Shown: positions 1 to 17,655 of the stretch, one piece after another | Numbering within the stretch: position 1 is the stretch's first letter | Layout: every line of letters starts with the position of its first letter | DNA from: Smithella sp. | Lineage (GTDB): Bacteria > Desulfobacterota > Syntrophia > Syntrophales > Smithellaceae | DNA length: 43,617 bases | Direction: 5' to 3' | NCBI GenBank assembly: GCA_030018675.1 | Contig: JASEHT010000002.1 | Coordinates: 1 to 43,617 of the forward strand | Made by a program: the position numbers and the translations under genes | The notes under the pieces: model-generated | The model's input: the letters and a program-made list of their open reading frames with translations, nothing else | Databases searched by the model: none | What the model was told of the DNA's origin: nothing

Positions 1-387
1 TCTTTTCTTCGCCGGTATGTTATCCAGTACTCTTTGGAAAAAATCTGCCACACATGCCTGAACCTTTTTGTGGGTTTTCTTACCTTCGCTCGTCAACGTA
101 AGCGTTACCGCGCGGGAATCGTGCGCAACCGCTTCCCGTTTTAAAAGCCTTTTGGCGATCAGCGGATTTACCAACCGCGTTGTCGTGCTTTTCTCCACCG
201 CAAGCCATGTGTGCAAATCGGCCATCAGCATTTCTCTGGAACCGGCTACCGCATCCAGAATCATAAACTGATGAAAAGTGACTCCTTCACAGAAAGCCTC
301 ATCCCGACAGCAACACCTCATCACCTGCGATAACCCTCTCAGCAAGCCAACGAACTCTGCTGTGTTTTCGTGATTCTTCTTTGACAT
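1..387 (-). CDS. MarR-family winged-helix transcriptional regulator (C-terminal end runs off the window)
   Basis: Absent from the ORF track because it is open at the left edge. Minus-strand translation from ATG 387..385 gives MSKKNHENTAEFVGLLRGLSQVMRCCCRDEAFCEGVTFHQFMILDAVAGSREMLMADLHTWLAVEKSTTTRLVNPLIAKRLLKREAVAHDSRAVTLTLTSEGKK... The segment TFHQFMILD...LADLHTWLAVEKSTTTRLVNPLIAKRLLKR...DSRAVTLTLTSEG is the typical MarR HTH-plus-wing pattern. The N-terminus is unusually Cys-rich (CCCRDEAFC). Confidence 0.75.
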   Translation of the reverse strand, partial: MSKKNHENTAEFVGLLRGLSQVMRCCCRDEAFCEGVTFHQFMILDAVAGSREMLMADLHTWLAVEKSTTTRLVNPLIAKRLLKREAVAHDSRAVTLTLTSEGKKTHKKVQACVADFFQRVLDNIPAKKR

Positions 388-556: not shown

Positions 557-1090
557 TTATTGGGAGGTCTCCTGTGCGACAATGGCATCCAGTTGCTCCA
601 TCGCGTCATCCATGGTTCCGGTGTTTAAAATATACGCATCGGCCAGGGCGATGGGAATCGCCGTTCCGTAAGCAACTTCTCTCTGGTCGCGTTCGTCAAA
701 GGATTGGGGAAAATCGTCTTCCCGCCCTCTCGCAACGACCCGTTCAAACCTCAACTGTCTGGGCGTCAATACGGCGACAACGACGCCATCGGCCTTTTCA
801 CGGATCAGTTCAATTTCGGGCCATGATCGCATGCCCTCCAGAAACCCTACCTCTGCTCCGGATTTTAGGATTTCATCAAGGGCAAGTCTGGTAACGCCCA
901 TTCCATCTTCTCCGCGCAACTCATCGGAAATTTCCGCGGAAGTGGTCGGGTCCGCTTCCAGTCCTCTTATTTTAGCTTCGGACCGGACAATGTCGCCTGT
1001 GGAATAATAGACCATATCACGGGTCCCCGCATAAAGACGGGCAATATTCTTACCGGCCGCCGGCATTCCCACGACAATAAATATTTTCAT
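557..1090 (-). CDS. P-loop nucleotide/nucleoside kinase-like protein (dephospho-CoA kinase / adenylate kinase-like AAA family)
   Basis: N-terminal Walker A (VGMPAAGKN) in a 177-aa protein the size of small NMP-kinase folds. A strong SD (GAGGAGG) lies 4 nt upstream of the ATG. Confidence 0.55.
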   Translation of the reverse strand: MKIFIVVGMPAAGKNIARLYAGTRDMVYYSTGDIVRSEAKIRGLEADPTTSAEISDELRGEDGMGVTRLALDEILKSGAEVGFLEGMRSWPEIELIREKADGVVVAVLTPRQLRFERVVARGREDDFPQSFDERDQREVAYGTAIPIALADAYILNTGTMDDAMEQLDAIVAQETSQ

Positions 1091-1293
1091 GCCCCCTCCT
1101 CAAACGACTTTTATTCCCTTATAATTTAAATCGTAAAAATCGTCCAGCAATTTTAAACGTGGTGAACGCAAACGAAGGCCGTGCCGTTTTGGATTTGTGA
1201 TGTTTTCTGAATGGCCAAGGCAAGTCAAAAAAGGAATCGTGAGAGCAGGCCTAAATCTTTTCATCTTATTTGAACCCGGAAAAACCGGAGGCG

Positions 1294-2682
1294 TTATTCA
1301 ATGTCGGTTACAGCCTTTTGCAAATTCCGCACATTGGTTTGAACACTATTTCCAATTCTTTTCAGCAAGACATCCAGCATGGTTGAGGCCCGCTTGATGG
1401 TTGCCTTATCGAATACATCGCTTCTCCACAGCCATTCCACGTCAAGAATCCATTCACCATCGGACAATCGCTCCCAAAAATTGAAAACAATGTCTTCGTG
1501 GGTATTTTTGCCTGTTGCAACATCGAAGCGCTCCAGATCAGCATCGGGCAGGCTGATGTCAATGTCGGCGGCTTTACGGTAGCTGATATATACTTTATAG
1601 GGCGGTTGACGTCGCGCTGTGCATTCCATATTCAGATCTTCGGCAAACATTTCAAACGGCATGTCTTGATGCTGCCTTGCGTTTAAGAAACGTGATCTAA
1701 TTTCTCTGAGCATTTCATTTATTTTTAGATCCGGTTGGATATTCAGAGAAATAATAATGTTGGTAAAAAAACAGCCGATCAATTGCTCCGCGCCCGGAAC
1801 TTGTCTGTTTGCATTGGCGATGCACAGAATGACACGCGAATTGCGGTATAAATGACCCACCAGCAACGTTATGGCTGCCAGAACAATCGTGAACAGAGTA
1901 CTCTTTTCCTGATCGGCAATGATTTTGCATTGGCTGATCGTGTCCGGAGCTATGATTTGCTGCAAAGACTCATACGACGGTGTGACGTCATTGGTGTTAT
2001 GTTGCGGTATCGCGCCTAACGGAGGCTCCCCATGAGTGCACCCGGCGAAAAAATCGCGCCAATATTGATGCCGGCTCGCAATATTTTCGCCGGAAAGCAA
2101 TCGTTCCTGTTTTTTCACGAACTCGCTATACTGAAACGTAAGCGGAGGCAATGCCAATGTCTTGCCCGTTACCATCGCGGCATATAAGGCCGTCAATTCG
2201 GCATTAAAAATACGTCTTGAAACGTAATCGCTGATGATGTGATGAATAACAAACATCAGCATGGATTCATCATTGCTCAATTTTACGGATACAACCCTTA
2301 ACATATTATCGTGACAAAGATTAAAAGGTCTGACAAGCGCCTCCTGCATCATTTGACCGGCCGTACCGGAAATGTCATCGTCGTGATGATTCCGCAAATC
2401 CGTATATTCAATATCAAATTGAGGGTCTTTTTCTATAATCTGAAATGGATATCCGTCTCGAGCAAACTGCAATCGGGATCGAAGCGGTTCGTGCCTCACG
2501 GCCAGCGAATACAAGGCCGTACGGAGCGCCTCCATATCCAGGAGGCCCTTGACCCTGTAACATCTTCCAACGTTGTACATCACATGATCATTATAAAGAT
2601 TCTGCAGAAACCAAATGCGCTGCTGAGGAAACGACAGCGGAATTTCCCGGCCTTCACTTAATCTGTGTTTATGAATGATCAC
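1294..2682 (-). CDS. Stand-alone condensation (C) domain protein (NRPS C / PapA5-type acyltransferase superfamily)
   Basis: 462 aa. The N-terminal LSFPQQRIWFLQ motif is typical of C domains. The catalytic HHxxxD motif HHIISD is at residues 147-152 (nt 2227..2244, verified by reverse-complementing). No adenylation, thiolation or thioesterase domain is present in this ORF or in its neighbours. Confidence 0.8.
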   Translation of the reverse strand: MIIHKHRLSEGREIPLSFPQQRIWFLQNLYNDHVMYNVGRCYRVKGLLDMEALRTALYSLAVRHEPLRSRLQFARDGYPFQIIEKDPQFDIEYTDLRNHHDDDISGTAGQMMQEALVRPFNLCHDNMLRVVSVKLSNDESMLMFVIHHIISDYVSRRIFNAELTALYAAMVTGKTLALPPLTFQYSEFVKKQERLLSGENIASRHQYWRDFFAGCTHGEPPLGAIPQHNTNDVTPSYESLQQIIAPDTISQCKIIADQEKSTLFTIVLAAITLLVGHLYRNSRVILCIANANRQVPGAEQLIGCFFTNIIISLNIQPDLKINEMLREIRSRFLNARQHQDMPFEMFAEDLNMECTARRQPPYKVYISYRKAADIDISLPDADLERFDVATGKNTHEDIVFNFWERLSDGEWILDVEWLWRSDVFDKATIKRASTMLDVLLKRIGNSVQTNVRNLQKAVTDIE

Positions 2683-2699
2683 GATTCTCTCCCTGCACG

Positions 2700-3908
2700 T
2701 TAGAAACTATCGCTTTCGTCTTTCCCGTCATACAGAGACCCGAGGTACCGGGAAAGTCTTGCGTCAGCGTCCTTTCTGGGACCGCAGAAAGCGTTCTCGC
2801 GTAATTTGCAAGCGTCGCAATTTGCAGGCAGAAAGTCTCCCCGCGACAGATCCTCTTTGTAACAGGACAGTTGCGGACATTGAACAGCGCTCGCGCTGAA
2901 ACAGCCGGTCAGAAAAAAAGCGTCGCCCCGGCATCCGCCCGTGCAGACACTGAAATGCGAACAATTTCTGCAATGACCGTGTATCCGTAGGTTCGGATAT
3001 CTAAAAAAATCCCGCTGCGGCAAATCAAAAATTTTATTCAGCGATGTTTCCGCATCGGTAAAAATATTGCCCAGAGGAAAAGGCTGTCCCACACACGGAA
3101 CAATCGTCCCGTCAATCAGACAATGAACGCTGTTTTCCGGCATATGGCACGTTTTACCATAGGCCTGAGGGGTCATGGGATAGGTTGTTCCCTTAAATTC
3201 ATGAACATCTATATGCTGAAGCCGGTCATAAACACAAAAAAGCTCCCCGGGAGAAAGATCTAACGGATTGCCTCTCTGAAAACGGTCGGACGCTTTTGTG
3301 CATTCAATAACATGACCGAAGCCCCGTGTTTTCGCGTAGCGGAAAACCTCAAAGAGCTGCCCGCTTTCCACCACCGGTCGTGTGATGCAGCACTGAACGG
3401 CAACCCTTGACGGTTCAAAAACCGATTCAATGTTGGCAAAAGCCCTATTCACCTGATCCAAGGTTCCCTGTTTCCCGACCAGCATGTCTTGTATTTTATT
3501 ATCAGATTCTCCATCACCGATAACATGTCTTTTAACTACAAGATCCGTGCCGGCAGCCTCTATCTTCCGGCAGAAATCCCTATCCGCCAGGAGCATGCCA
3601 TTGGTCACTAGCAATACCTGGTGGAATTTAAAATCCGCGGCGCATTTCAGAAAATCCAGAATACGGGCATGAATGGTCGGTTCTCCGCCCAGAATATAAA
3701 TTTCCTGAAAGCCGGCCAACGATGCCTGCCGCATCGCTTTTTCAAATAACTCCATGGACATATGGGACGGGGAGGAAGCGGGAATATTCGAGGGGTTGTT
3801 AATATAATAACACGTAATGCAATTTAGATTGCAATGACTGGTTATATCAATTCCAAAACCCAGATTGCTGATTGTAAAATCCGTATCAGTTGTTTCTCTG
3901 AAAGGCAT
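2700..3908 (-). CDS. Radical SAM enzyme with C-terminal SPASM domain
   Basis: CX3CX2C (CNLNCITC, residues 26-33, nt 3810..3833). GGEPT SAM-binding motif is present. The full SPASM pattern is GTIVPC ... CRNCSHFSVCTGGC (CX2CX5CX3C) ... C336. Five further Cys follow in the last 60 residues. Confidence 0.85.
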   Translation of the reverse strand: MPFRETTDTDFTISNLGFGIDITSHCNLNCITCYYINNPSNIPASSPSHMSMELFEKAMRQASLAGFQEIYILGGEPTIHARILDFLKCAADFKFHQVLLVTNGMLLADRDFCRKIEAAGTDLVVKRHVIGDGESDNKIQDMLVGKQGTLDQVNRAFANIESVFEPSRVAVQCCITRPVVESGQLFEVFRYAKTRGFGHVIECTKASDRFQRGNPLDLSPGELFCVYDRLQHIDVHEFKGTTYPMTPQAYGKTCHMPENSVHCLIDGTIVPCVGQPFPLGNIFTDAETSLNKIFDLPQRDFFRYPNLRIHGHCRNCSHFSVCTGGCRGDAFFLTGCFSASAVQCPQLSCYKEDLSRGDFLPANCDACKLRENAFCGPRKDADARLSRYLGSLYDGKDESDSF

Positions 3909-3917
3909 AAAAATAAA

Positions 3918-4046
3918 TCACTTTTTTGATAAGGGGTCGCTTCGCATTGAGAGAAGATAGGAAGGTTCTGTTTTTATGTCAATGACTTTTTCTGTGTTAT
4001 TCTTCCGGTATCCGTGTCCTTCTTTTATTGAAAAACGAATATCCAT
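3918..4046 (-). CDS. Unannotated 42-codon ORF, candidate substrate/precursor peptide or small accessory protein
   Basis: Hand translation gives MDIRFSIKEGHGYRKNNTEKVIDIKTEPSYLLSMRSDPLSKK, then TGA. It fills the 147-nt gap between the HlyD and rSAM genes almost exactly, with 9 nt on each side, on the same strand. It has no Cys and no clear SD, and falls below the ORF-track length cutoff. Confidence 0.25.
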   Translation of the reverse strand: MDIRFSIKEGHGYRKNNTEKVIDIKTEPSYLLSMRSDPLSKK

Positions 4047-4055
4047 TTTTCTGCT

Positions 4056-5252
4056 TCATTTGGTCTGTCTTATTTTCGTGCCTTCGCTGATGGAATCGTC
4101 AGGATAGGCAAGAATCTTTTCATTTTCTTTTAATCCGGACATAATTTCCGCCGCCATTCCGTTTCTCTGGCCGATCTCAACAATGCGCTTACGCGCTTTT
4201 CCCCTCTCCTCGACAAAGACAGCCCAATCCCGGTCCGACCGGAACAAAGCGCTTACGGGAATTTGCAGAACATTATTCCCTTCCCAGACAATAAAGTGCG
4301 CTTCCATGCGGAATCCATCGCCCAGAACGCTCCATTGTTCCGGCGGCGACGTAATATCCGCAATCACCAGAACCCGCTGTTCTTCGACGCCCAGACTCGA
4401 TATCTTTGTGAATCCTGCAGGCTCGACCAGGCGAACTTTCCCCTGAAGAGGCTCATCCCTGCCCCAGCGTTTGAAGAGGATGTCCGTCCCGGGTTTAATT
4501 TTAACGGCGTCCGACGAGAGGACTTCCACCCGCACCTCAAGGTCGCGCAAATTGCCGATATCCATCAGCGGTTCGCCGATGTTCACCGCCCCTTCGCTTT
4601 CGCGGTAAACCCTGAATACCGTTCCGCTCAGCGGCGAGGCAACAGCCATCGTGTTGACATCCCTGCTGACAGCGGAGAAATTCTGTAACGTTAGTTTCGC
4701 CCTTTCCAGTTCCGATCCGGCCACGCTTACTTCCGCCTTGACCGAAAGCTGGACCGCCCGCGCTTTCTGCGCTTCGGCGCTGATCTGGTCGAACTGGTCC
4801 CGGGCAATGGACCCTTTTTCATACAGGGCTTTCAATCGCTCCAATCTCTGCTCCAGATAGACGGCATCGGCCCGGGCGACCTTTTCTCTTTCCGAAGCGG
4901 CTTTCAATGCCGCCTCGGCGGAGGCAACAGCGGTTTGTGCCGTCGCCCGGCTTCGCGGATCAAGCGCTTGCGATCTGAGCGGTTCCAATACAGCCACGAC
5001 CTGTTCCTTCGTCACGGAATCTCCCACCTTGACGTGAACGCGTCTCATATATCCGGCCGTGGGCGCGGAAAGGGTAAAACGCTCTTTGAGGCGGGTGCGT
5101 CCTTCCTCTTCAATCGTCACCTGAAGGGGTCCCCGGGTAACCGAAGCGATGTCAACCGCAAGGGTCCGGGGCAGGAAACCGTAGATCATTAAAAAAACGA
5201 CGATCAGCATAACACTGATGATCAGTATTTTTCTGCGCAATATGCCAGTCAT
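4056..5252 (-). CDS. HlyD/MacA-family periplasmic adaptor (membrane fusion protein)
   Basis: N-terminal TM anchor, a lipoyl-like VKVGDSVTKEQVVAVLEP motif, a long Ala/Glu-rich coiled-coil stretch and a beta-barrel C-terminus. It lies adjacent to the ABC permease and ATPase. Confidence 0.8.
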   Translation of the reverse strand: MTGILRRKILIISVMLIVVFLMIYGFLPRTLAVDIASVTRGPLQVTIEEEGRTRLKERFTLSAPTAGYMRRVHVKVGDSVTKEQVVAVLEPLRSQALDPRSRATAQTAVASAEAALKAASEREKVARADAVYLEQRLERLKALYEKGSIARDQFDQISAEAQKARAVQLSVKAEVSVAGSELERAKLTLQNFSAVSRDVNTMAVASPLSGTVFRVYRESEGAVNIGEPLMDIGNLRDLEVRVEVLSSDAVKIKPGTDILFKRWGRDEPLQGKVRLVEPAGFTKISSLGVEEQRVLVIADITSPPEQWSVLGDGFRMEAHFIVWEGNNVLQIPVSALFRSDRDWAVFVEERGKARKRIVEIGQRNGMAAEIMSGLKENEKILAYPDDSISEGTKIRQTK

Positions 5253-5339
5253 GCCATTACTCCTGCCCTGCTTCTTTCTTGTTGTTTATCATATCCTCTC
5301 TTGATTTCAAAGGATAACACGCCCAATGAACATGGCCTC

Positions 5340-7703
5340 TTATTCCTTTGTCTTGAGGACTTCCACCAAATCAAGATGATCCAGTTTGCGCCGGACAATC
5401 AGCCCGGATATTAGCGCCGAAAAGATGACCACCGCCGCCGCCTGGGCATACGTTTTCAATTCGATGACCATCGGCACGCGGAACAAATCGGACGCCAGCG
5501 CGTAAGCGATGTAAGAACAAAGCCAGTAGCCGATAATAAATCCCAGCGGTATAGCCGCCAGCGTAATCAGCGCCAGTTCTCCCAGAAGAATGTAGGCTAT
5601 TTCGCCCCGTGTATATCCCAACACCCGAAGCGACGACAACTCGCGGCTTCGTTCGGCCAGCGATATTCTCGCGCTGTTATAGACCACACCGAACGCGATG
5701 GAACAGGCCATCAGCAGCGCGATAAACGTAAAATACAGCATACCTTTGGCCATCACCTCGTAAATATTATCAATTTCGTTCTGCCGCATCACGACGTCGG
5801 CAACACGCGGCATTTCCACAAACGACCGGAAGAGTTTGTCTCTGTGGAGGGCATCGGTCACCAGGTAGGCGCCGGAGATGGCGTCGCCCTCCCGCATCAG
5901 GCGGTTGAGTGCGTTCAAATTCATGTATCCCATCACGCCCAGATATTGTTTCGCCAGGGCAACCACCGGAACCTGGCGGACGGCTTTGACGCCTTCGAGC
6001 GTTTCGACCGTCAGCATGTCCCCGGCTTTCACGTCGAGAAGCGTTCCCAGATAATCCGTAAGCAGAATGCCCGATTCCGGCAGCGGGATACTCTTCAGGT
6101 TCGTGTCCAGCAGAAGATGCAGCCGTCCCTCCGGCTCAATGCCGTTGATGACGGTTTTGTAACTGCGATGTCCGAATTTGAGTTTTACCGGAACGGACCG
6201 GAACGGTTCGCCGTCATGGATGCCGGGTGTCCGTTTCAGTTCGTATACCGCCTTATAGGAGGTCGGCTCGACAAACGATATTTTCATGTCCTCTTTCTGG
6301 GAAAAGACATATTGAACCTTCACCATAAAATCGATGGAGTCGCTGAAAAAACCGCTGGAAACCATTGTGGCGCAGGCCACGGCGATGCCGACAATGGAAA
6401 GCAGCGTCCGGACGGGTTTCCGCTCCACGTTGCGGGCGATAATCCGCGTCGGTTGTGTGAGCCAGCGGCCGAGGCCCGTTTTTTCGATAAGCGTGACCCG
6501 GTACTTCGCCGGCGCTTCCGGCCTCATCGCTTCGGCCGGCGGTTGTTTGGCGGCCATCCAGAGAGAGTGAACGGTTCCGGCAAGCGCGGACGCCGCGCTG
6601 ACGAAAACGGCAATCACAAGAACGTCCGGATGCAATGTGTAAATGAAGACAGGAAATCGATAAAACTCCATGTAAATACCGCCCATCATTTTCCCAAGCC
6701 AGATGCCGGCGGCAATGCCCGCCAAAATACCGGCGGTAATAATCAGGATAACCATCTTCGCGTAATGAAACGCCACGGCAACATCATCGTAGCCGAACGC
6801 CTTGAGAATGGCGATTTGTTCGCGCTGGGTATTGATGATCCGGCTCATGACAACATTGAGCAGAAAAGCGGCGACGCAGATGAAGATCACGGGATAGATT
6901 CTCGAACTCGTACGGAGTTGTTTCATTTCCTCGCTCAAAAGCCGGTGCGACATCTGATCCTTGCGCCCATACGCTCCGTAGCCGCCGTAACTTCCCAGCA
7001 CATTATCCAGATCCCGGATCACATCGCTTTCCTGGACGCCCGGATAAAGACTTAAAACAACATCATTGAACGCGCCGTCCATGTCGAAAGCCTTGCTGAT
7101 GGCCTTGCGGCTCATCCACAAAATCCCGAATCGTTTGAAGTCGGGTGTCATCGCGCCGATTTTCATCACCAGCACGAATTCGGGAGAAAGCGCGATGCCG
7201 GTAATTGTCAGATTTTTCCATTTTCCGTTAATCACCGCCGCCAGGTGATCGCCGAGCTTGAGTCCGTGCGCCTGAGCGAAGGTTTCATTGATGACCACCT
7301 CATGGTCTTTGAAAGGATCGGGAAGACGGCCTTGTCTGATGTAGAGACGGTTCAGCAGAGGAAAGCCGTCATCGGGAAGGGAAACAATCTTGCCGGTGAC
7401 TGACTCGTTAAATCCCTTAATGTCGAGCTTGGCATGAGCGGAAACGCGCGTTTCCAGTTGATTGACCCCGGGGATGTTTTGCAGTCTGTCCTTGAGGCTT
7501 TCCGGCGCCCGCTTCAGATTCACAAAAACTTCGGCGAAATTGTATTCGCGGTAAAATTGGCTGCGGGTGAAATCCAGCGAATGCATGGTGCTGATAAACA
7601 GGATAAACGTCGCCACGCCGCTCATCACCACCATCGAGATTGCAAGAACCTGGCCTTTCATCCGCCAAAGTTCCCGCCAGAGTTTTCGATCCAGCGCCTT
7701 CAC
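5340..7703 (-). CDS. ABC transporter permease with duplicated FtsX/MacB-type domains
   Basis: 787 aa. It has two blocks, each a TM helix, a large periplasmic segment and three TM helices (FtsX-like architecture). It starts 4 nt downstream of the ATPase stop. Confidence 0.8.
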   Translation of the reverse strand: MKALDRKLWRELWRMKGQVLAISMVVMSGVATFILFISTMHSLDFTRSQFYREYNFAEVFVNLKRAPESLKDRLQNIPGVNQLETRVSAHAKLDIKGFNESVTGKIVSLPDDGFPLLNRLYIRQGRLPDPFKDHEVVINETFAQAHGLKLGDHLAAVINGKWKNLTITGIALSPEFVLVMKIGAMTPDFKRFGILWMSRKAISKAFDMDGAFNDVVLSLYPGVQESDVIRDLDNVLGSYGGYGAYGRKDQMSHRLLSEEMKQLRTSSRIYPVIFICVAAFLLNVVMSRIINTQREQIAILKAFGYDDVAVAFHYAKMVILIITAGILAGIAAGIWLGKMMGGIYMEFYRFPVFIYTLHPDVLVIAVFVSAASALAGTVHSLWMAAKQPPAEAMRPEAPAKYRVTLIEKTGLGRWLTQPTRIIARNVERKPVRTLLSIVGIAVACATMVSSGFFSDSIDFMVKVQYVFSQKEDMKISFVEPTSYKAVYELKRTPGIHDGEPFRSVPVKLKFGHRSYKTVINGIEPEGRLHLLLDTNLKSIPLPESGILLTDYLGTLLDVKAGDMLTVETLEGVKAVRQVPVVALAKQYLGVMGYMNLNALNRLMREGDAISGAYLVTDALHRDKLFRSFVEMPRVADVVMRQNEIDNIYEVMAKGMLYFTFIALLMACSIAFGVVYNSARISLAERSRELSSLRVLGYTRGEIAYILLGELALITLAAIPLGFIIGYWLCSYIAYALASDLFRVPMVIELKTYAQAAAVVIFSALISGLIVRRKLDHLDLVEVLKTKE

Positions 7704-7707
7704 GTCG

Positions 7708-8430
7708 TCACCACACCAGTTCGCTCGCGGATTTCTTGGATGGATTCACTATGATGTCCGCTATCTTCCCGTCGCTGAGATGAATCACGCGGTCGGCCAT
7801 GCCGGCGATATCCGCGTTATGCGTGATGATGGCCGTGGCCGTGCCCAGTTCGCGGTTGATGCGCTCGAGCGCCTGCAGCACCAGAATGCCTGTTTTGGAA
7901 TCGAGCGCGCCGGTCGGTTCGTCGCACAACAGCACCGCGGGGTTTTTGGAAATGGCGCGGGCGATGGCCACGCGCTGCTGCTCGCCCCCGGAGAGCTGAG
8001 CGGGGAAATGATTCATTCTTTCGGTCAGACCGACGAGTTCCAGAGCCTCTTCCGGTTTCATCGGATTTTCGGCAATTTCCGTCACCACCGAAACATTTTC
8101 TTTTGCCGTGAGGCTGGAGATCAGATTGTAAAACTGAAAAACAAATCCGACATGAAAGCGGCGGTACGCCGTCAATTCTTTTTCGGTGGCATTGGTCAGC
8201 TCTTTGCCCCGGTAAAAAACACTACCGCCGGTCGCCGTATCCAGTCCGCCCATGATATTGAGCAATGTGGATTTACCACTGCCCGACGGTCCGAGCAGAA
8301 CCACCTGTTCGCCCGTGTCGAGCTCCATATTCACACCGCGCAGAGCGTGAACCTCCACGTCGCCCATTTTGTAAATTTTGGTCAGGTCGCGCACCTGGAA
8401 AATGTTTTCTTTTAAGTCATTCATGATCAC
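7708..8430 (-). CDS. ABC transporter ATP-binding protein (MacB/LolD-like)
   Basis: Walker [10 protein letters not shown], signature [14 protein letters not shown], Walker [13 protein letters not shown]-loop ITHN. Confidence 0.9.
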
Positions 8431-8467
8431 GCTTGTCGTGCCGGAAATGCATGGCCGGAAAAAGCAT

Positions 8468-9268
8468 TTAATAACTGTAGCTGATGGCGGCGCCCGCGGA
8501 CCATCGCTCGGAATATTTCCCCTCGATATTCAGACGGAATCCCTTCCCCAGCGGCATATCCAGTCCCGCGAATCCGCCGATGATGGACCGGTTGTGCAGA
8601 AGAGCATGTCCCGCGGAATAGTCGATGCCGGGAATATCGGCGTCCAGCGCCATTTTAGATTCCGAATAATACGCGTAGGGACCGCCGTATAACCGGGCGT
8701 CATAAGGAAGCGTGATTTGAAATCCCAGCCCGCATTGTACGTCCCAGAGATTTTTCACTTTCAACCTGGCGCTGAAAGGAACGCCGCCGGCTTCCCCCGA
8801 AACGTCGTCCCTGAAATCACTGAAATGATATGTGCCCTGAATAAAAAAGCCCGCGCCGAATATCCCGGTCGCCCGATAAAAAGCCTTGGCGCCCAGCGTG
8901 CCGAAAAATTTCCAGTGTTCCCGGAAATCCTTTTTATCGGTAACGGTGGCGGAATCCGCGGAAGCAAAAGCGTCGGCCATTTTGAAATCGGATATTCCAA
9001 TGCGCGCGTACGTTTCCCAAATGTTCTTCGCACCGTAGGCCACATGGGAATAAACGGAGTTTTTTCTGACACTGTGTCTTGCGCCGTTTTCATAAACATC
9101 TTCATCGTACACATAACCGATGGCTGTATTCAATCCCCCCGCCTCCTGCGAAACGGTCTGGGGAGCGCCGAATAATCCCGCCGCGTTCGCCGACGAACCC
9201 ATCGCCAGCAAGGCGAGCGTTACAAAAATCATTACAGAAGAATATCCGCCGGACGGTTTTGTTTTCAT
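8468..9268 (-). CDS. Small outer-membrane beta-barrel protein
   Basis: Signal peptide ending ANA-AG. Alternating aromatic/Gly-rich amphipathic strands. C-terminal ...AAISYSY has an aromatic terminus typical of BAM substrates. Its ATG directly abuts the mlaA stop (TAAATG). Confidence 0.5.
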
Positions 9269-10207
9269 TTAATGGTCCTTTCCCGCCGCCGGTTCGTCAG
9301 GCAGGGCTGTCTCCGATGGCTGAAACGATGAGGCTATTTTTGCCTGCCGGGATTTTACCCTGTTATAACGGTACTGGACGTAGGCGTCGCGAAAAGCAAG
9401 GTAGGGATCAATGGCCGCTCCCTTCAACGCCTCATAATCGCCCAGTCTCAGCGAGGTGGCGTTGATTTCCTCGTATGCCCTCACGCCCACGCCCGCGTAC
9501 CAGGGGGAAATGTAGGAAACGGGATACAGGAAATAATCGCCGGCAATGGTCACCGAATCGCGGGGGCTGGAGGGACCAAACACCGGCCAGACAATATAAA
9601 AACCGTGACCGATGCCCCAGACACCCAGCGTCTGCCCCAGATCCGTCTCCTGCTTCTGCAAATTCAGTTTTTCCTGCGAGGAGGGATCGAGAAATCCTCC
9701 GACGCCCCAGACGGTGTTGATGGTAAAACGTCCGGCTTCCGCAGCCGCGCCGCTGAAATCCGCCTGCAACAGACAACTCAAAAAACGCGCAGGGAACGCC
9801 AGGTTAAAGAAGAAATTTTTCACGCCCAGACGCGCCGGTTCAGGAACGACCGCTTTATACCCCTGCGCCGCCGGCTTGAGCGCCCAGAAATAAAGCTTGT
9901 CGTTGAACTGATGCATAACCCGATTGAACGGCTCCAGCGGATCGGCAATCGTCAATTTATGTTCGGGGATTTGCGTGTCCGGAAGGTCGTAATCATCTTC
10001 CTCGAAATCGCCGTAGGCGTCATCCATCGCGCTGTCAATCTGGGCGCCGGACGGCACCGGATCCGGGTCGGAGGTGACAACCGTTATAACCGGCGTTGAC
10101 GCATCCGCCGCGGACAAATGAACAGGCGTGTTTGTCTCGTTTGCGTATCCCGCCGCCGAAAAGATTAAAAAGAAAATAAAGGTCAAATAAGATTTCATTG
10201 ATCCCAA
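9269..10207 (-). CDS. mlaA: MlaA/VacJ-family lipoprotein
   Basis: DPLEPFNRVMHQFNDKLY...GVKNFFFNLAFPARFLSCLLQ...GRFTINTVWGVGGFLD matches the conserved MlaA core. It is the last gene of the mla string. Confidence 0.8.
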   Translation of the reverse strand: MGSMKSYLTFIFFLIFSAAGYANETNTPVHLSAADASTPVITVVTSDPDPVPSGAQIDSAMDDAYGDFEEDDYDLPDTQIPEHKLTIADPLEPFNRVMHQFNDKLYFWALKPAAQGYKAVVPEPARLGVKNFFFNLAFPARFLSCLLQADFSGAAAEAGRFTINTVWGVGGFLDPSSQEKLNLQKQETDLGQTLGVWGIGHGFYIVWPVFGPSSPRDSVTIAGDYFLYPVSYISPWYAGVGVRAYEEINATSLRLGDYEALKGAAIDPYLAFRDAYVQYRYNRVKSRQAKIASSFQPSETALPDEPAAGKDH

Positions 10208-10252
10208 CCATGCTTTCAGGCGAACCGGCAGAAAATGAAGACGGGCGTTATT

Positions 10253-10852
10253 TTAATGCTTGCTGACCATGTCGCGCAGTGTTGCCAGCAGTTGTTCCGG
10301 CGTATTCTTCGAAAGGATATCGTTGAACTGTGTGCGGTAATTCTGCACCAGACTGACGTTTTCCACGATTACGTCATAGACTTTCCATTTGCCGTCCTTG
10401 AGTATCACCCGGTAGAAAATGGGGATTTCCTTGGATGACGTTATGATCTTGCTCTGGATTTCCGCCTGCGTTGCGGTCAGCATGGTCTCTCTATAGAATT
10501 CAACCTTTTCGTTTGTGTAGTCGAGAATCTTATCCGCGTAATTCTTTTCGAGAACCTGCTTGAAAAGCTCCACGAATTCCACCCGCTGGGCGGGAGTCAG
10601 GTTGTTCCAGTTGCGCGTCAGGGTTCTTCTGGAAAATTCAATCTGATCGAACATGTCATCGAAAATCACCCGCAGCTTGTTTTTCTTAATCTCCTTGGCG
10701 GAAGCGGCTTTCAACTTCGGATCGCGCAGTACATCGAGCACCTTATCCACGTTTTTCTGAACCGTGTCCATCGGCGCACCCGCGTAACCCGGACTATTCA
10801 ACACAAAAAGCATGATCATGAAAATGCAGATTCCCGCAATTAGTTTTTTCAT
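10253..10852 (-). CDS. mlaC: MlaC/Ttg2D-family periplasmic phospholipid-binding protein
   Basis: 199 aa with a signal peptide. The pattern ...FDxxxxSRRTLxxxWNxLTPAQRxEFVxLFK... is characteristic of the toluene-tolerance Ttg2D/MlaC family. It sits between mlaD and mlaA. Confidence 0.75.
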   Translation of the reverse strand: MKKLIAGICIFMIMLFVLNSPGYAGAPMDTVQKNVDKVLDVLRDPKLKAASAKEIKKNKLRVIFDDMFDQIEFSRRTLTRNWNNLTPAQRVEFVELFKQVLEKNYADKILDYTNEKVEFYRETMLTATQAEIQSKIITSSKEIPIFYRVILKDGKWKVYDVIVENVSLVQNYRTQFNDILSKNTPEQLLATLRDMVSKH

Positions 10853-10883
10853 CTGGTTTTACCTCCTGGATTTTGTTGCCGCT

Positions 10884-11339
10884 CTATTGCGGCTTAACCT
10901 CGCCGAACGCGTATTTGCCGATAACGTCCACGATATCAATAGACGCCTGCGTTTCAATGATAACACCTTCAGGCTCAAGCACCGTTCCGGATCCGCCCGG
11001 ATCTATACTGACATACTTGTCGCCCATCAGCCCCTCGGTTTTTATGGAAGCAATGGCATCATCATATATATGAATTCCCTTTTTGATTCGAAGCTCAACC
11101 ATCGCTCTCTGATTTTCCTGATCCATGGTTATTTTATTCACCCGTCCGACCTCAATACCGAGAATTTGAACCGGGTTGCCATGGCGCAGACCGCTTACGG
11201 AAAGAAAATTGGCCGTCAGGGGATAGGCATTGTCGCCGAATAAATACACATTGCCCAGTTTCACGGTCATGTATCCGATACAGACCAATCCCAAAAAGAC
11301 AAAAATTCCTACGATGGTTTCAATCTTATATTTTTTCAT
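10884..11339 (-). CDS. mlaD: MlaD (single MCE-domain protein)
   Basis: N-terminal TM anchor followed by an MCE domain (GLRHGNPVQILGIEVGRV). 151 aa. It starts 4 nt after the ATPase gene. Confidence 0.85.
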   Translation of the reverse strand: MKKYKIETIVGIFVFLGLVCIGYMTVKLGNVYLFGDNAYPLTANFLSVSGLRHGNPVQILGIEVGRVNKITMDQENQRAMVELRIKKGIHIYDDAIASIKTEGLMGDKYVSIDPGGSGTVLEPEGVIIETQASIDIVDVIGKYAFGEVKPQ

Positions 11340-11343
11340 TCAT

Positions 11344-12591
11344 CTACTCCTTGACGGCACATTGCATCCGTCCGATTTCTTTTTGTTGACCTCTGGCCGA
11401 ATTAATCACGGCGTCTATTTCCTCAATCGGCTGGCCTTCGGCGACCCCTGCTAGAATAGCAAAATCCACGCATTTTTCCAACCGGGTCTTCTTTTGCGCC
11501 TCCTCCCAGATATCCCGGATTCCCTTCTCCTGAAAATCGGCGATAAATTGCTTTAAAATGCTTTCTGCCTCTTGGAGATCGGAATAAGGCAGCACGGTCA
11601 CAATTTCATCGTGATTGCGACGCGTGGAAAATCCGCCGATGGAACCGAAGTGTTTGTCCACGTAAAGTCCCATGGAATGAATGATTACCTGCGCCGCGTC
11701 ATATCCGAGCATGGATTTTATCGCGTCCAGACCGGATAATGTAAAGACGGCCACACAATAACTTTCATCCGATTTTCTTCGTTGAAACTGTGTGCGATTC
11801 AGCATTTTAAACTGTCGTTGGGAATAAAGCCCCGTCAGTTCGCGTTGCAGACTTTCCAGGCTGCGGATCACTTCATCGGTGAACGGGTGTTCAAAATCAC
11901 CCAGTTCTTCCGGTGTGCCCTGAAAAACCACTTCTTTATCGTACAGGGCAAGAATGCTGTTGGAAATAAAATAAACGTCGGGTATCTCATGGCTGACCAT
12001 GATGGCCGTAAAGTTAAATTTTCTCTGATACTGCGCGATCATGCTCAGGATGGCGTTTTTTCTGACGGGGTCCTGTCCCGTGGTCGGCTCGTCAAACAGC
12101 ACCACCTTGGGATCGGTCACCAGAGCCCGCGCCAGAGCCGCGCGCTTCTGCATGCCTCCGGAAAGTTCCGAAGGAAATTTATGAGCGGCTTCCGTCAATT
12201 CGGTCTGTTCGATTCTGGCCATGACCCGTTTGTGGATTTCGGATTTATGCAATTTTGTTTTTTCCAGGAGCGGCAGCGCGATGTTGTCATAAACCGTCAT
12301 GGAGCCGAACAAAGCGTTGCTTTGAAACATGTAGCTCATCTGGGACATTAATTCGTTCATTTCCGCTTTTTTCATCTCGTTCACCGGCTGGCCGCGAAAA
12401 AGAATGGTCCCTTCATCGGGCTTGAGCAATCCGATAATATGCTTGAGCAGGACGCTTTTTCCCGAGCCGCTCAGGCCGATAATCGTGGTGACCTGTCCTT
12501 CGTAAATCTGCAGATTCACCTTATCCAGAACCGTTTGCGTTCCGAATCGTTTGGTCACATTTTTAAATTCAATCAGAGGCGTCGTCATCAT
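11344..12591 (-). CDS. mlaF: MlaF-type ABC ATPase fused to a C-terminal degenerate GGDEF-like domain
   Basis: Residues 1-245 have Walker A GLSGSGKS, signature LSGGMQKRAALARA and Walker B VLFDEPTTGQD. Residues ~250-408 align to the GGDEF fold (ELTGLYSQRQF ... VAVFTLSGLDAIKSMLGY ... RRNHDEIVTVLP ...). NHDEI replaces GGDEF (nt 11602..11616). Confidence 0.8.
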   Translation of the reverse strand: MMTTPLIEFKNVTKRFGTQTVLDKVNLQIYEGQVTTIIGLSGSGKSVLLKHIIGLLKPDEGTILFRGQPVNEMKKAEMNELMSQMSYMFQSNALFGSMTVYDNIALPLLEKTKLHKSEIHKRVMARIEQTELTEAAHKFPSELSGGMQKRAALARALVTDPKVVLFDEPTTGQDPVRKNAILSMIAQYQRKFNFTAIMVSHEIPDVYFISNSILALYDKEVVFQGTPEELGDFEHPFTDEVIRSLESLQRELTGLYSQRQFKMLNRTQFQRRKSDESYCVAVFTLSGLDAIKSMLGYDAAQVIIHSMGLYVDKHFGSIGGFSTRRNHDEIVTVLPYSDLQEAESILKQFIADFQEKGIRDIWEEAQKKTRLEKCVDFAILAGVAEGQPIEEIDAVINSARGQQKEIGRMQCAVKE

Positions 12592-12596
12592 TCATC

Positions 12597-13448
12597 CTAG
12601 ATAAGCAGCAGTGAAGTCACCACGTAATCCGAAACAAGAATCAGCACGCAGGAAATCACGACGGCCGAGGTGGTGGCCAGTCCGACTGCCTTAGCCCCCT
12701 TGCTGTCCTTGCGCCTATGTACATAATATCCCTGATAACAGCACACGGTCGCCACGATGACCGCGAACACGATGGACTTGGCGAAACCATCGGTAATGTC
12801 CTTTATATCCACGTAGGACTGAATGCTGTGCAGATACGTTCCGGCATTCAGCCCCATCAAAATGACGCCGGTAATATAGCCTCCGATAATGCCGATAATA
12901 TCAAACGCGGCGGTTAAAAGAGGGAAACTGATGATTGACGCCGTAATTCGCGGGCTGATGATATAACTGAACGGGTCAATGCGCATGGTTTTCAAGGCGT
13001 CCACCTGCTCGGTGATGCGCTGAATGCCTATTTCGGCTGTAATGGCCGAACCCGCCCGGGCCGTAATCATGATGGCGGTCAAAACCGGTCCCAGTTCCCG
13101 GATCAGCGACAGGGAGACCAGCGTTCCCAGCGCGCCCTGAGCGCCGAATTGCACCAGAGCGTGATAAGATTGCAGACCCAGAACCATGCCGGTGAAAAGG
13201 CTCACCAGCAAGATGATTGTTGTTGACCGGGCTCCGATATAATAAATCTGCTGCACAACTTTGGGAAGCTGCTTGGGATGCAATGATCTCAACAGGGCAA
13301 CAAAAAGGAAAATCGTGGCTGCGCCTAAAACGTGGATCCATTCAATCACTTTTGTGCCAAGGTGAGCGAAAAGCCTTTCCATCAACGCGGCCAAAGAGGA
13401 TTCTTGTTTGCCCCGGGTATGATTCCAATTATTTTCAGCAAAAGCCAT
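12597..13448 (-). CDS. mlaE: MlaE permease
   Basis: 283-aa polytopic membrane protein. RELGPVLTAIMITARAGSAITAEIG is the conserved MlaE/Ttg2B motif. It is the first gene of the mla string. Confidence 0.85.
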   Translation of the reverse strand: MAFAENNWNHTRGKQESSLAALMERLFAHLGTKVIEWIHVLGAATIFLFVALLRSLHPKQLPKVVQQIYYIGARSTTIILLVSLFTGMVLGLQSYHALVQFGAQGALGTLVSLSLIRELGPVLTAIMITARAGSAITAEIGIQRITEQVDALKTMRIDPFSYIISPRITASIISFPLLTAAFDIIGIIGGYITGVILMGLNAGTYLHSIQSYVDIKDITDGFAKSIVFAVIVATVCCYQGYYVHRRKDSKGAKAVGLATTSAVVISCVLILVSDYVVTSLLLI

Positions 13449-13520
13449 GAATAAAGTTACCCCTTGTTTCAGATTAGGCGAATGACATTTTTTACATATT
13501 TATTGATTTTCGTCAACCGT

Positions 13521-14405
13521 TTACTGAAAGACTTCCGTCATAAATTCTTTTATGATTTTAGTAACTTCTTTAGGTTTTTCCATGGGGATCAGGTGGCCGG
13601 CTCCGTCAACAGACTGATATCTTCCGTCTTTTAATAACGATACCGCTTTTTTCAAATCAATAAATTCCCTATTGGTGCTTTTTTCACCTTCCAAAATGAG
13701 AACCGGACAGGTCAATTCCTTTAACAACGGCCAGGGGTTGGTGCTTTTTCCGCCCATAAACAGCGCGGCTTCACTTCTCGGAGCGCAGGTCAGTTTCAGG
13801 TCGCCCTGCGCCTGTTTTTCCATGCCGTATTTAACGTAGAATTGAAGCATCTGTTCGTCCCATCCGGAAAAGAGCGATTTGGATTTCAGATATTCCAGGG
13901 CAGACTGTTCATCTTTCCAGCTGTTTTTTCTTTTGATCGACTGCGCCGCGAGGGGATGATCCTTGAGCTTGATATCCATTTCGTAAAACGCTTCCGGCAG
14001 GAAAATCGGCTCCATCAGAATCATGCCGCGGGGCTGAAGGCCAAAAAGCGCCGTGGCAATGGTGAGCACCGTGGCGCCCATGGAATGCCCGACCGCCAGA
14101 TGATCGGTGATATTCCGGGAACTGCAGAAACTGATGATGTCGCGGGCAATCACATCCCAGGACAGCCCGCCGCTTTCCGGATCGCAATCCCGGTAATTGC
14201 AGATATACGGCGCCCACGCCTGCTGATGAGGCGTCAGATTTTCGATGATGGGATGCCACAGCCAGGGCAGAAAACCGGTGGCATGGGCAAAAAGAATCGG
14301 TGGCGCTTCTCCTTCATAATAAAGATACGGCAATTCCGCGCCGCCGACATCGTGAATTTTTAATGACGGGATTTCTTTTTCTTTCATATCTTTTTCATTT
14401 TTCAT
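13521..14405 (-). CDS. Alpha/beta-fold hydrolase
   Basis: HG oxyanion region (ILFAHATG), nucleophile elbow GHSMGA and a C-terminal GAGHLIP His motif. Confidence 0.8.
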   Translation of the reverse strand: MKNEKDMKEKEIPSLKIHDVGGAELPYLYYEGEAPPILFAHATGFLPWLWHPIIENLTPHQQAWAPYICNYRDCDPESGGLSWDVIARDIISFCSSRNITDHLAVGHSMGATVLTIATALFGLQPRGMILMEPIFLPEAFYEMDIKLKDHPLAAQSIKRKNSWKDEQSALEYLKSKSLFSGWDEQMLQFYVKYGMEKQAQGDLKLTCAPRSEAALFMGGKSTNPWPLLKELTCPVLILEGEKSTNREFIDLKKAVSLLKDGRYQSVDGAGHLIPMEKPKEVTKIIKEFMTEVFQ

Positions 14406-14491
14406 GCATCGGACGAAGCAAGCAGACCTTTATTCAGCAGCCGGTCGCCGGTCTTTACGCCCTACGCCCCAAGACAGGGACAGAGTCTTTT

Positions 14492-15046
14492 TTAAAAAAC
14501 AAACACCGCCACGGCTATGACCGTGGTGAAATTATTATTTTTGCAAATCGTTGATTGTGTAACGTTAAGGGTTCGAACGATCTTCCCGCTGATTTTAAAA
14601 ATTTCCTTTTTCTCATCCCAGCTTTCATCAACGTTGAAGTCAATGCCCAACGTCGAAGCCAGCATCGCCGCGGCGAGGTCTTCCGCGTAATCGCCCGACT
14701 GTTTTTCGTTCTGTCCGAACGCATGGTGCTCGCTGATGTAACCGTAGGATGACTTGTCCGCGGGAATAGCACAACCGACAGAGGCGGCCAGAAGTCTTTT
14801 CGGTTCGTTGGTGCAGCAGCGGCTTAAAACACAATAGGTGATAGCGCCCGGTGTCAATTCTTTCAAGCCCTGGGTTTTGGAAATCACCTTGCAGCCCGGG
14901 GGGAATATACTCGAAACCTGCACGAGATTGCATTTTTCTATTCCCGCATCACGCAAGGCACGCTCAAAGGAATGCAGTTCATCCTTGTGCGTGCCCACCC
15001 CTTTGGTAAAAAAAATCTTTTTAGGCACAAAGCTATTCATTTTCAT
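14492..15046 (-). CDS. pdaD: Pyruvoyl-dependent arginine decarboxylase
   Basis: [13 protein letters not shown]...[26 protein letters not shown] carries the Ser-Ser self-cleavage site typical of PdaD. Size is ~180 aa. Confidence 0.8.
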
Positions 15047-15255
15047 CTCCTTACTCGCTCCTTCAATGAAGCACTGGTGTATTTTTTAAAATCAGCCTTC
15101 CCAAGCGCCGAATTTATTTTTTAAGCTTATACCAGTGTTCGACGCCTTATGCCACTAAATTATTTAACAATTTATGATTTTTTTTGTTTCTTTCACCTTG
15201 CCGAAAATTTAAAAAAAGACTATACAAACTCATCGCTCACGAAGAGGATCTCCGG

Positions 15256-16665: not shown

Positions 16666-16881
16666 GCTTCGCTTAAGGGAAAACTTCCTTAAGGCTCACG
16701 ATGCCTAACTGCCAAGGCGGAGGGATAGTTTCCAATCCCGATATATCGGAACTGGATAATTCGACCAGCAAACTTCAGTACGTCTATAGTGCCCTTTAGG
16801 GTATTCACTTCTGAAGTTTGGGTCTCATTACAACCAGCAGATATTGCTGCATTGCCTTTGCAATATCTGGGTTTCACTATT

Positions 16882-17655
16882 ATGAAATATAAAATCACTC
16901 TCGAATACGACGGCACCAACTATCGCGGCTGGCAGTCGCAAAAAAACGCCCACAGCGTTCAGGATACCTTGATCAAGGCGGCGGAAAATTTTCTGGGCGC
17001 GCCGGTGAACGTCCAGGGCGCGGGCCGAACCGACGCCGGTGTTCATGCCCTGGGACAGGTCGCCCATCTGGAAACGTCCAAAAAAGTTCATCCGGACTCC
17101 CTGCGTATGGGTATCAACGACAACCTGCCCGCCAGCGTCAATATCCTGAAGGTGGAAAACGCCCAGCCGCTGTTTCATGCCCGCCATCACGCCGTCAGCC
17201 GCAGCTATTTGTATCTTATTTCCAGAAGGCGCACGGCTTTCGGCAAACGCTATGTCTGGTGGGTGAAAGACAACCTCGACTGCGCCAAAATGAAACAGGC
17301 GCTCGACATGTGTCAGGGCTTTCACGACTTCGCCTCCTTTGCCGACAAAAGAATGGACAAGGATGCTTCGACAAAAGTCAACATCGAAGGCATCTGGCTC
17401 AAGGAATTTGACGACATCATCGCCGTGCGCATTGTCGGCTCGCATTTCCTTTGGAAAATGGTGCGCCGCATCGTCGGCGTAACCGTCGAGGTAGGACGCG
17501 GTAATTTCACCAAACGCGACATCGAAAAAATGCTCAACACTTATTCGGAACTTCCGGCGCGCTTCACCGCCCCGCCTTCCGGTCTTTTTTTGGAAAAGGT
17601 TTTATACGAAGGCGACAAACTGCCGCCCATCACACCGCCGGTTTCTCTGTTTTAA
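16882..17655 (+). CDS. truA: tRNA pseudouridine(38-40) synthase
   Basis: MKYKITLEYDGTNYRGWQSQ...GAGRTDAGVHALGQVAH carries the catalytic Asp motif. The start is set at ATG 16882 rather than the upstream in-frame start of the track ORF. Confidence 0.9.
   Translation: MKYKITLEYDGTNYRGWQSQKNAHSVQDTLIKAAENFLGAPVNVQGAGRTDAGVHALGQVAHLETSKKVHPDSLRMGINDNLPASVNILKVENAQPLFHARHHAVSRSYLYLISRRRTAFGKRYVWWVKDNLDCAKMKQALDMCQGFHDFASFADKRMDKDASTKVNIEGIWLKEFDDIIAVRIVGSHFLWKMVRRIVGVTVEVGRGNFTKRDIEKMLNTYSELPARFTAPPSGLFLEKVLYEGDKLPPITPPVSLF

Follow-up and report, generated by a model that had tools for sequence, protein, structure and literature searches.

We analysed a 43,617-nt stretch of a Smithella sp. contig (JASEHT010000002.1, positions 1–43,617; referred to as the window), focusing on two adjacent genes, one for a radical S-adenosylmethionine (rSAM) enzyme with a SPASM domain and one for a free-standing condensation (C) enzyme of the non-ribosomal peptide synthetase (NRPS) type. 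The rSAM/C pair is real, strictly conserved, and lies outside any curated family. Within the window (1294–3908) it very probably forms a two-gene accessory cassette inserted between the HlyD adaptor gene and a kinase-like gene. The apparent eight-gene cluster in which the pair is found is a chimera of a core envelope operon, the inserted cassette and a separate regulator unit. As to its role, we favour on balance a small-molecule or envelope tailoring module, rather than a pathway for a ribosomally synthesized and post-translationally modified peptide (RiPP).

Conservation was assessed on 28 fetched loci (designated by L numbers) that represent ~16 non-redundant lineages, mainly Syntrophales/Smithella-like and ‘Deltaproteobacteria’ metagenome-assembled genomes (MAGs), with one Verrucomicrobia MAG. 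At all loci with at least 353 nt upstream of the C-family gene (28/28), the next gene upstream, in the same orientation, is the rSAM gene. The homologues of both proteins lie on common contigs, the gap between the genes is short everywhere (in the window the C gene starts 17 nt past the rSAM stop codon), and no terminator is predicted within it. A previous reading made from the sequence alone (the sequence-only reading) had paired the two genes, and our co-occurrence check bears this out, with orthologues strictly syntenic across genomes. Comparison of the window with L007 gave a ratio of nonsynonymous to synonymous substitution rates (dN/dS) of 0.21 for both rSAM and C, equal to the values for HlyD and MlaA, at dS of 0.47–0.66; both genes are under purifying selection. 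In the Verrucomicrobia MAG (L016 2134–3333; L056 8800–9996) the rSAM frame is split into open reading frames (ORFs) of 193 and 200 aa, reflecting either a frameshift or an assembly error.

The insertion is best seen by comparison of occupied and empty sites. The window and L006/7 have the order HlyD, rSAM, C, kinase, and L063 has HlyD, a PaaK-like ligase, rSAM, C and kinase at the same site. Smithella contigs L064–66, whose HlyD is 79% identical, carry MlaE-F-D-C-A, a 265-aa protein, the ATP-binding cassette (ABC) ATPase, FtsX, HlyD and the kinase gene, the latter only 10 nt after HlyD. The more distant L071–72 (HlyD 74% identical) share this gene order, also without a cassette, and in L071 the kinase gene follows HlyD after 89 nt. 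The GC fraction at third codon positions (GC3) is 0.49/0.50 in the cassette genes versus 0.62–0.68 in the exporter genes. For HlyD, Smithella/Syntrophaceae hold more than 120 clusters at ≥68% identity, versus ~25 for the pair. Past the C stop codon, a decayed direct repeat of the HlyD 3′ coding end (Table 1) reads SGFK*DEKI*ACSHDS versus SGLKENEKILAYPDDS at 4092–4139; its local alignment score is 41, compared to 17 ± 2.1 (maximum 23) for shuffled sequences. The relic bounds the insertion on its downstream side. Whether the cassettes of the window and L063 share one vertical origin was also considered and found unsupported, since the identity matrices are star-like and L063 is no nearer to the window than L001 or L050 are. 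At the empty site of L071, a barnase/barstar pair follows the kinase gene (7981–8720), so that what lies beyond the core operon varies.

The sequence-only reading had treated the exporter, the kinase-like protein and a MarR regulator as one eight-gene system with the pair. This did not hold. The exporter and kinase genes occur without the pair in L064–66 and L071–72, the pair occurs without this exporter and kinase in ~13 of the ~16 lineages, often together with a different ABC transporter, and MarR accompanies the pair only in the window/L006–8 lineage. Because of the empty sites, the pump-free pairs elsewhere and the lineage-limited MarR, we regard exporter, kinase and MarR as neighbours of the cassette and not as its parts.

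The spacer between HlyD and rSAM contains a sigma-70-like promoter and, spanning it, a 42-codon ORF (Table 1). In the orthologous spacer of L006/L007 the –35 element is identical and the –10 element differs by one base (TATTTT), while the flanks diverge; the conserved block of the alignment consists of the promoter followed by a short 5′ untranslated region (5′UTR). We infer that this is the cassette's own conserved promoter-like site. In L006/L007 an indel breaks the frame in the upstream half of the 42-codon ORF, the peptide encoded there is unrelated, and the shared half differs at 7 of 21 residues. No homologous small ORF was found in 12 other lineages, nor was any shared peptide family detected among ORFs of 18–110 aa within 1.5 kb of the pair at 14 loci, where the only widely shared matches were antisense shadows of the conserved rSAM 5′ end. 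Judging from these alignments, the 42-codon ORF, listed by the sequence-only reading among its genes, is most likely non-coding, represents the promoter and 5′UTR of the cassette, and is not a conserved precursor.

The rSAM protein matches the Pfam models Radical_SAM (PF04055, 38.1 bits, cut-off 29.5) and SPASM (PF13186, 29.3 bits, cut-off 21.5). Its CX3CX2C motif (C26/C30/C33) and GGEP motif (G74-G75-E76-P77) are invariant across 23 homologues, and the SPASM cysteines follow the order C254-X12-G-X4-C272 ... C313-X2-C316-X5-C322-X3-C326 ... C336, with G267 as the glycine. Motif and Pfam evidence thus agree with the intact CX3CX2C and full 7-Cys SPASM domain described in the sequence-only reading. 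Past SPASM, C344 is conserved, and the C-terminus carries C364-X2-C367-X7-C375; a tail of this kind, CxxC-x(6-8)-C, is present in 99 of 100 full-length homologues, and from it an additional metal site is predicted. The N-terminus, MPFRE, is near-invariant, and 86/100 full-length family members start with MPFR. An AlphaFold2 (AF2) model (pLDDT 88) has a SPASM-type fold with the core starting at residue 17, and neither Pfam nor the model revealed an N-terminal RiPP recognition element (RRE) or PqqD domain.

The sequence-only reading would have been undermined by an rSAM that falls inside a characterised family, and this is not the case. All 58 NCBIfam matches are far under their cut-offs (180–850) and most span the rSAM core only; the best of them, TIGR04317, reaches 58.1 bits versus the required 380. 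None of the curated rSAM equivalogs, including the anaerobic sulfatase-maturating enzyme (anSME), PqqE, MftC, AlbA, AhbD/NirJ, Tes, the W-cofactor maturase, MoaA and others, reached its cut-off. Foldseek matched the model to anSME, CteB, BlsE, SuiB and ChlB at TM scores of 0.5–0.6 and ≤20% identity, with anSME on top (PDB 4k37, E-value 2.5e-12, TM 0.58). Assignment to a known family was given up, as NCBIfam, Pfam, PDB sequence and Foldseek searches all returned generic SPASM matches. A profile search of 1.84 billion representatives yielded ~6 clusters above 350 bits and ~10 at 200–300 bits, with a SPASM continuum below; the ten rSAM-related clusters that were looked up are metagenome singletons.

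With the anSME/AtsB type (4k37) the enzyme shares a partial TIM-barrel core, CX3CX2C, GGEP and a SPASM domain whose seven cysteines serve two auxiliary clusters, and neither has an N-terminal leader-recognition domain. It differs in sequence (18–20% identity; TIGR03942 47.6 bits versus a cut-off of 349), in having no sulfatase neighbour, and in its additional C-terminal CxxC-x7-C, MPFRE N-terminus and C-domain partner. The RiPP maturases CteB, SuiB, PqqE and AlbA have the fold class and the auxiliary-cluster domain in common with it and are among the top structural matches; unlike them, the window rSAM comes without an RRE/PqqD domain or a conserved precursor, and scores 33–58 bits in NCBIfam versus cut-offs of 380–850.

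The C protein is covered by the Condensation model (PF00668, 220.5 bits, cut-off 30.6) over residues 12–454 of 462. The catalytic HHxxxD noticed in the sequence-only reading is present as HHIISD (147–152): H148 and D152 are invariant in the C family, H147 is kept in at least 90% of sequences, and the residue that follows the catalytic Asp is Tyr or His in place of Gly. C252, C287 and C304 are also invariant, the last lying within the ordinary C5 core motif of C domains. The family is sharply bounded, with 27 clusters at ≥340 bits followed by ordinary NRPS modules at ≤181 bits. In PDB, the closest sequences are in-line elongation C domains (Txo2, 1e-40, 143 bits; TycC, 1e-31). VibH (1l5a) gave an E-value of 3.3e-4 and 23 bits, and the PapA5 model NF006787 29.6 bits versus a cut-off of 396, which places the protein outside the VibH/PapA5 sequence families while the free-standing state is shared. 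Enzymes of the VibH/PapA5/SgcC5 types link soluble or lipid acceptors through an amide or ester bond. Like them, the window enzyme is a single C domain with HHxxxD and no fused adenylation, carrier or thioesterase domain. It departs from them in being nearer to in-line NRPS C domains, in the Gly-to-Tyr/His replacement, in being encoded always downstream of an rSAM gene, and in that most loci encode no carrier partner.

The window does not contain a canonical NRPS assembly line, having neither adenylation nor carrier (peptidyl carrier protein, PCP) domains. A tblastn search of all 43.6 kb revealed no AMP-binding or PaaK-like gene, and phmmer with three acyl carrier protein (ACP)/PCP queries no carrier at E ≤ 10. 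Together with the ORF annotation, these searches extend to the whole window the earlier remark that adenylation, carrier and thioesterase domains are missing nearby. As a family trait, the lack of an adenylation enzyme is not valid, since ~7 lineages encode a PaaK-like ligase at or near rSAM. Among the relatives, AMP-binding and PP-binding domains are encoded by separate genes in L009 only, and an ACP-like protein is found in L001.

The PaaK-like ligase gene is directly upstream of rSAM in six lineages (L001, L005, L010, L016/56, L055 and L063), at a distance of at most ~110 nt and mostly ≤~30 nt, and nearby in L050. In L063 the ligase gene occupies 4990–6339. The ligases carry an SGSTG motif and match weakly the DVU1553-family, PaaK, FlxY and BagE models as well as PaaK structures. 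This three-gene form of the cassette, with the ligase directly upstream, is not found in the window, where tblastn detected no PaaK-like gene. A second recurrent partner, a ~285-aa protein with an invariant DYGxFDYVxHxG...DxNKT signature, occurs in six lineages (L009, L015, L050, L058, L067 and L069) and has no Pfam, NCBIfam, PADLOC or PDB match. The possibility that it is an ATP-grasp ligase, raised by the motif GFDYGRFDYV...NKT, was rejected: there was no Pfam match at E ≤ 5, no PDB match, and hhalign gave a probability of <1% versus two ATP-grasp neighbours. A defence-system reading of the locus was likewise dropped, as PADLOC placed only pVip (viperin) models on the rSAM core (residues 21–116, 43 bits) and returned no match for the C protein, the kinase-like protein, the ligase or the 285-aa protein.

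The wider contexts of the pair vary between lineages. In L001, a Syntrophales-type metagenome contig, the ligase-rSAM-C trio lies inside a dialkylresorcinol/flexirubin-like cluster (3747–20947) with DarG (143 bits, cut-off 70), DarH (404 bits, cut-off 300), an LpxL-like acyltransferase, the ACP-like protein, a B12-rSAM, an MMPL-methyltransferase fusion, two ketosynthase (KS) genes and an ABC-2 exporter. In L009 and L067 the pair is accompanied by glycosyltransferases, sulfotransferases, adenosine 5′-phosphosulfate (APS) kinase and an ABC_membrane exporter, and in L050 and L069 by GT2 and ATP-grasp ligases. L001 thus resembles Dar/Flx and aryl-polyene-type lipid-pigment clusters whose starter ligase is PaaK-like (FlxY), in that the trio is embedded among DarG, DarH and KS genes; in contrast, no curated flexirubin/Dar model matches the window rSAM or C protein, most pair loci are without Dar genes, and the window has none. 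L069 also contains, on the opposite strand and ~1.4 kb from its GT2-rSAM-C genes, a separate 59-aa ORF-PqqD-rSAM unit (4217–6351, minus strand) that resembles a RiPP system and has an ATPgrasp_TupA gene beside it.

More distant members of the rSAM family, at 35–49% identity, were found in Patescibacteria and DPANN-type archaeal bins (labels Aenigmarchaeota and Methanosarcinales), and no C domain adjoins them. Their neighbours are DUF169 (nine loci), flavin reductase (four), a class-Ib aminoacyl-tRNA synthetase, probably TrpRS (four), a TrpR-like protein (three), a chorismate-mutase-like/UbiE-type methyltransferase fusion (three), BtpA (three) and Asp/Glu racemase (two). The order rSAM then DUF169, a recurrent and uncharacterised pairing in genomes of very small size, is seen in Patescibacteria at ~40% identity (L012/L021–L026 and L031–L033, for example L012 8001–9895), flavin reductase genes in L019, L020, L028 and L030, and the synthetase, TrpR-like and chorismate-mutase-like genes in L013 (8890–10008), L027 (5818–8096), L029, L030, L012 (7534–7809), L025 and L026. 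That these partners are mutually unrelated argues against an rSAM that matures its neighbour and for a small-molecule substrate. The substrate may be aromatic, as suggested by these aromatic-type adjacencies, the PaaK-like ligases and a trp operon that starts 2.2 kb beyond MarR in L006/7.

The tailoring chemistry that we propose is tentative, a little short of an even chance, and is drawn from domain families and neighbours. A carboxylic acid would be activated, in relatives by the PaaK-like ligase; as the ligase is missing in the window, the donor there would have to be supplied as an acyl-CoA or acyl-ACP, or as an acid whose activating gene lies elsewhere. The C enzyme would then use its HHxxxD motif to join the acyl group to an amine or hydroxyl acceptor, giving an amide or ester. 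The rSAM/SPASM enzyme would take a hydrogen from the substrate or the product, with the auxiliary clusters handling electrons, and the resulting C–H functionalisation could be an oxidation, a cross-link or a rearrangement. The product would probably decorate an envelope-associated lipid, pigment or glycan, an idea based on the contexts of relatives, namely the DarG/DarH cluster, the glycosyltransferase/sulfotransferase/flippase clusters and the ATP-grasp clusters. The neighbouring pump would not be dedicated to the cassette.

Several observations weigh against the tailoring reading. Its chemistry is inferred from domain families and gene neighbours, and MAGs or metagenomes are the source of all the relatives. 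By sequence, the nearest proteins to the C enzyme are in-line elongation C domains (143 bits to Txo2, 23 to VibH), which normally use carrier-bound substrates, and most loci, the window included, encode no carrier. The window lineage alone among those with good flanks lacks both the PaaK-like ligase and the ~285-aa protein, and its pathway may therefore differ or be incomplete. Finally, two cassette versions (window/L007 and L063) lie behind HlyD at the same site and no terminator is predicted between HlyD and the cassette, so read-through or coupling with the pump is possible.

Such coupling defines an alternative we consider unlikely, in which rSAM and C make an envelope lipid or glycolipid that the ABC/FtsX/HlyD pump beside mla exports, as in the lipid version of the sequence-only reading. 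The cassette is directly behind HlyD in three lineages and in two versions (two genes in the window and L006/7, three in L063), with no terminator-like site before rSAM; the other contexts of the pair are envelope-, lipid- or glycan-related; and the pump ATPase is closest to the DevA and LolD models. However, the pump operon is core and unchanged where the cassette is absent (L064–66, L071–72), its HlyD clusters far outnumber those of the pair, ~13 of ~16 lineages have the pair away from this pump, and the cassette differs in GC3 and is preceded by a conserved promoter of its own. Decay is a further possibility, namely that the two-gene version in the window makes no product after loss of the PaaK-like ligase. 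We regard this as improbable: the window/L006–7 lineage is indeed the only well-flanked one without both recurrent partners, and the rSAM ORF of L016/L056 is split, yet in the window both ORFs are intact with all catalytic residues kept, the promoter is conserved, and dN/dS matches that of HlyD and MlaA over the same range of dS.

It is quite improbable that the rSAM matures the C protein by post-translational modification in the manner of anSME and sulfatase. In its favour, the two genes are strictly paired as direct neighbours, the best structural match, anSME, likewise has no RRE, and C252, C287 and C304 are invariant in the C family. Against this, C304 belongs to an ordinary core motif, TIGR03942 is far from its cut-off, and the rSAM family elsewhere pairs with DUF169, flavin reductase and racemase, with no common target motif. 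The least probable of the explanations, and one we consider highly improbable, is a RiPP pathway in which the 42-aa ORF product or another small peptide is cross-linked by rSAM, acylated by the C enzyme and exported by the pump. Peptides or proteins are the substrates of most characterised SPASM enzymes, CteB, SuiB, ChlB and SkfB are among the nearest structures, and L069 has its PqqD-rSAM-small ORF unit nearby. But the conserved part of the 42-codon ORF is promoter and 5′UTR, its frame is broken by an indel, and its shared half differs at a third of the residues although the rSAM proteins of the window and L006/L007 are 83% identical. Moreover, no small ORF is conserved over the 14 loci, in six lineages the ligase gene occupies the position immediately upstream of rSAM, no RRE/PqqD is among the conserved neighbours, which comprise a C domain, a PaaK-like ligase and the ~285-aa protein, all RiPP-maturase NCBIfam models score far below cut-off, and the rSAM partner proteins differ between clades. 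Of the two kinds of product offered by the sequence-only reading, the RiPP is thus disfavoured by the lack of both a precursor and an RRE, while the envelope lipid or glycan survives.

Returning to the tailoring module, both proteins belong to known superfamilies; it is the conserved pair, its three-gene variant with the ligase and the rSAM subfamily that are uncharacterised and without a curated model. Literature searches for the domain combination, DUF169 and Smithella biosynthetic gene clusters found no description, and neither did family libraries. If our proposal holds, ligase, rSAM and C form a compact two- or three-gene route that needs neither an assembly line nor a ribosomal precursor to link radical chemistry with bond formation of the NRPS type. 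The C-paired genes were seen in no organisms other than uncultured anaerobes, namely Smithella-like syntrophs and a single Verrucomicrobia MAG, and the cassette is short enough for heterologous expression and so directly testable. The rSAM family is kept with other partners in tiny Patescibacteria/DPANN genomes, which suggests a basic, as yet unrecognised substrate. A broader version of the proposal is speculative and rather doubtful. In it, Syntrophales, Patescibacteria and DPANN archaea would share an undescribed radical reaction, carried out by the MPFRE rSAM family on a common small metabolite that may derive from an aromatic amino acid or chorismate. In Syntrophales, a carrier-independent C enzyme would be added, giving a new, envelope-associated class of amides or esters made by an rSAM/NRPS-fragment hybrid, usually with a PaaK-like ligase and without a ribosomal peptide or assembly line. 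The locus also calls for caution, since gene adjacency here misleads, with a composite of three units posing as one cluster.

All ORFs in the gene list of the sequence-only reading were recovered on the minus strand (Table 1), and Pfam backs the domain calls. The gaps, described there as short, are not all so, with 147 nt between HlyD and rSAM (holding the promoter), 203 nt between C and kinase, and ~170 nt between kinase and MarR (holding a promoter and a palindrome). The P-loop protein scores 24 bits with AAA_17, under the cut-off of 27. The MarR-like ORF is homologous to a PF12802 (MarR_2) protein of L007, which heads a MarR-CdhD-ferredoxin unit with its own promoter. In the window, a palindrome with a 13-bp stem (382–410) immediately before the MarR start overlaps two promoter-like sites of opposite orientation and is probably the MarR operator. 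No MarR gene is found next to the kinase gene in L064 or L071, and MarR is a unit separate from both the cassette and the exporter operon.

Table 1. Coordinates of the features discussed (positions in the window unless an L number is given)
Feature	Position	Strand	Basis or remark
MarR-family ORF, start near 383, truncated by window edge	1..383	minus	translation; homology to L007
P-loop (AAA_17-like) kinase-like protein	557-1090	minus	sub-threshold AAA_17
Decayed 48-nt copy of HlyD 3′ coding end	1233-1280	minus	direct repeat D1, 77% identity; 13 nt past C stop
Free-standing NRPS-type Condensation enzyme, 462 aa	1294-2682	minus	PF00668
rSAM/SPASM enzyme, 402 aa	2700-3908	minus	Pfam Radical_SAM + SPASM
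42-codon ORF	3918-4046	minus	spans cassette promoter + 5′UTR
Sigma-70-like promoter (TTGACA, 17 nt, TATCTT) before rSAM	3954-3982	minus	promoter scan, 10/12 matches
HlyD/membrane fusion protein (MFP) adaptor	4056-5252	minus	Pfam HlyD_3
Double-FtsX permease with MacB_PCD	5340-7703	minus	Pfam FtsX x2 + MacB_PCD
ABC ATPase	7708-8430	minus	Pfam ABC_tran
~285-aa protein of relatives	L009 15092-15982; L015 4764-5630; L050 8322-9182; L067 3596-4468; L069 10518-11363		

The core operon is linked to mla and consists of MlaA, a 266-aa protein, the ABC ATPase, the double-FtsX permease, HlyD and the P-loop kinase. The pump ATPase is nearest to the DevA, LolD and YbbA models, and all pump scores are below equivalog cut-offs. 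Like MacB/DevBCA/LolCDE-type (type VII) exporters, the pump has a separate ATPase, an FtsX-type permease with MacB_PCD and an MFP adaptor; it differs from the fusion of nucleotide-binding and transmembrane domains in MacB by its fused double-FtsX permease of 787 aa. It is part of the core genome and not cassette-specific. The 266-aa protein (8468–9268, minus strand) has no Pfam or NCBIfam match; a signal-peptide-like N-terminus and a C-terminal aromatic residue suggest a putative outer-membrane protein. At each of the Smithella-like loci looked at (L006/7, L064, L071) it is conserved, with MlaA on one side and the ABC ATPase on the other. The MlaF-like ATPase (11344–12591, minus strand, 415 aa) extends ~170 residues past its ABC domain, the MlaF model having 270 positions, and has the same 415-aa length in L007 and L064.

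The remaining annotated ORFs, up to ~31.6 kb, are housekeeping genes, with those beyond covered by the tblastn and phmmer scans only; a check for riboswitch, tRNA or mobile-element signals at the insertion gave no Rfam or tRNA matches in the window, and no integrase-like ORF was seen. On the plus strand, an elongation factor P (EF-P) modification module (21470–24511) contains a KamA-family, EpmB-like rSAM (315 bits, cut-off 199), EF-P itself (22762–23325) and EpmA/GenX (339 bits, cut-off 287). It is followed on the same strand by a Tol-Pal cluster (25834–30737) encoding MotA/ExbB (TolQ-like), ExbD (TolR-like), TonB_C/TolA-like and TolB proteins, an OmpA-family Pal-like protein and a tetratricopeptide repeat (TPR)/YfiO-like protein of the CpoB type.

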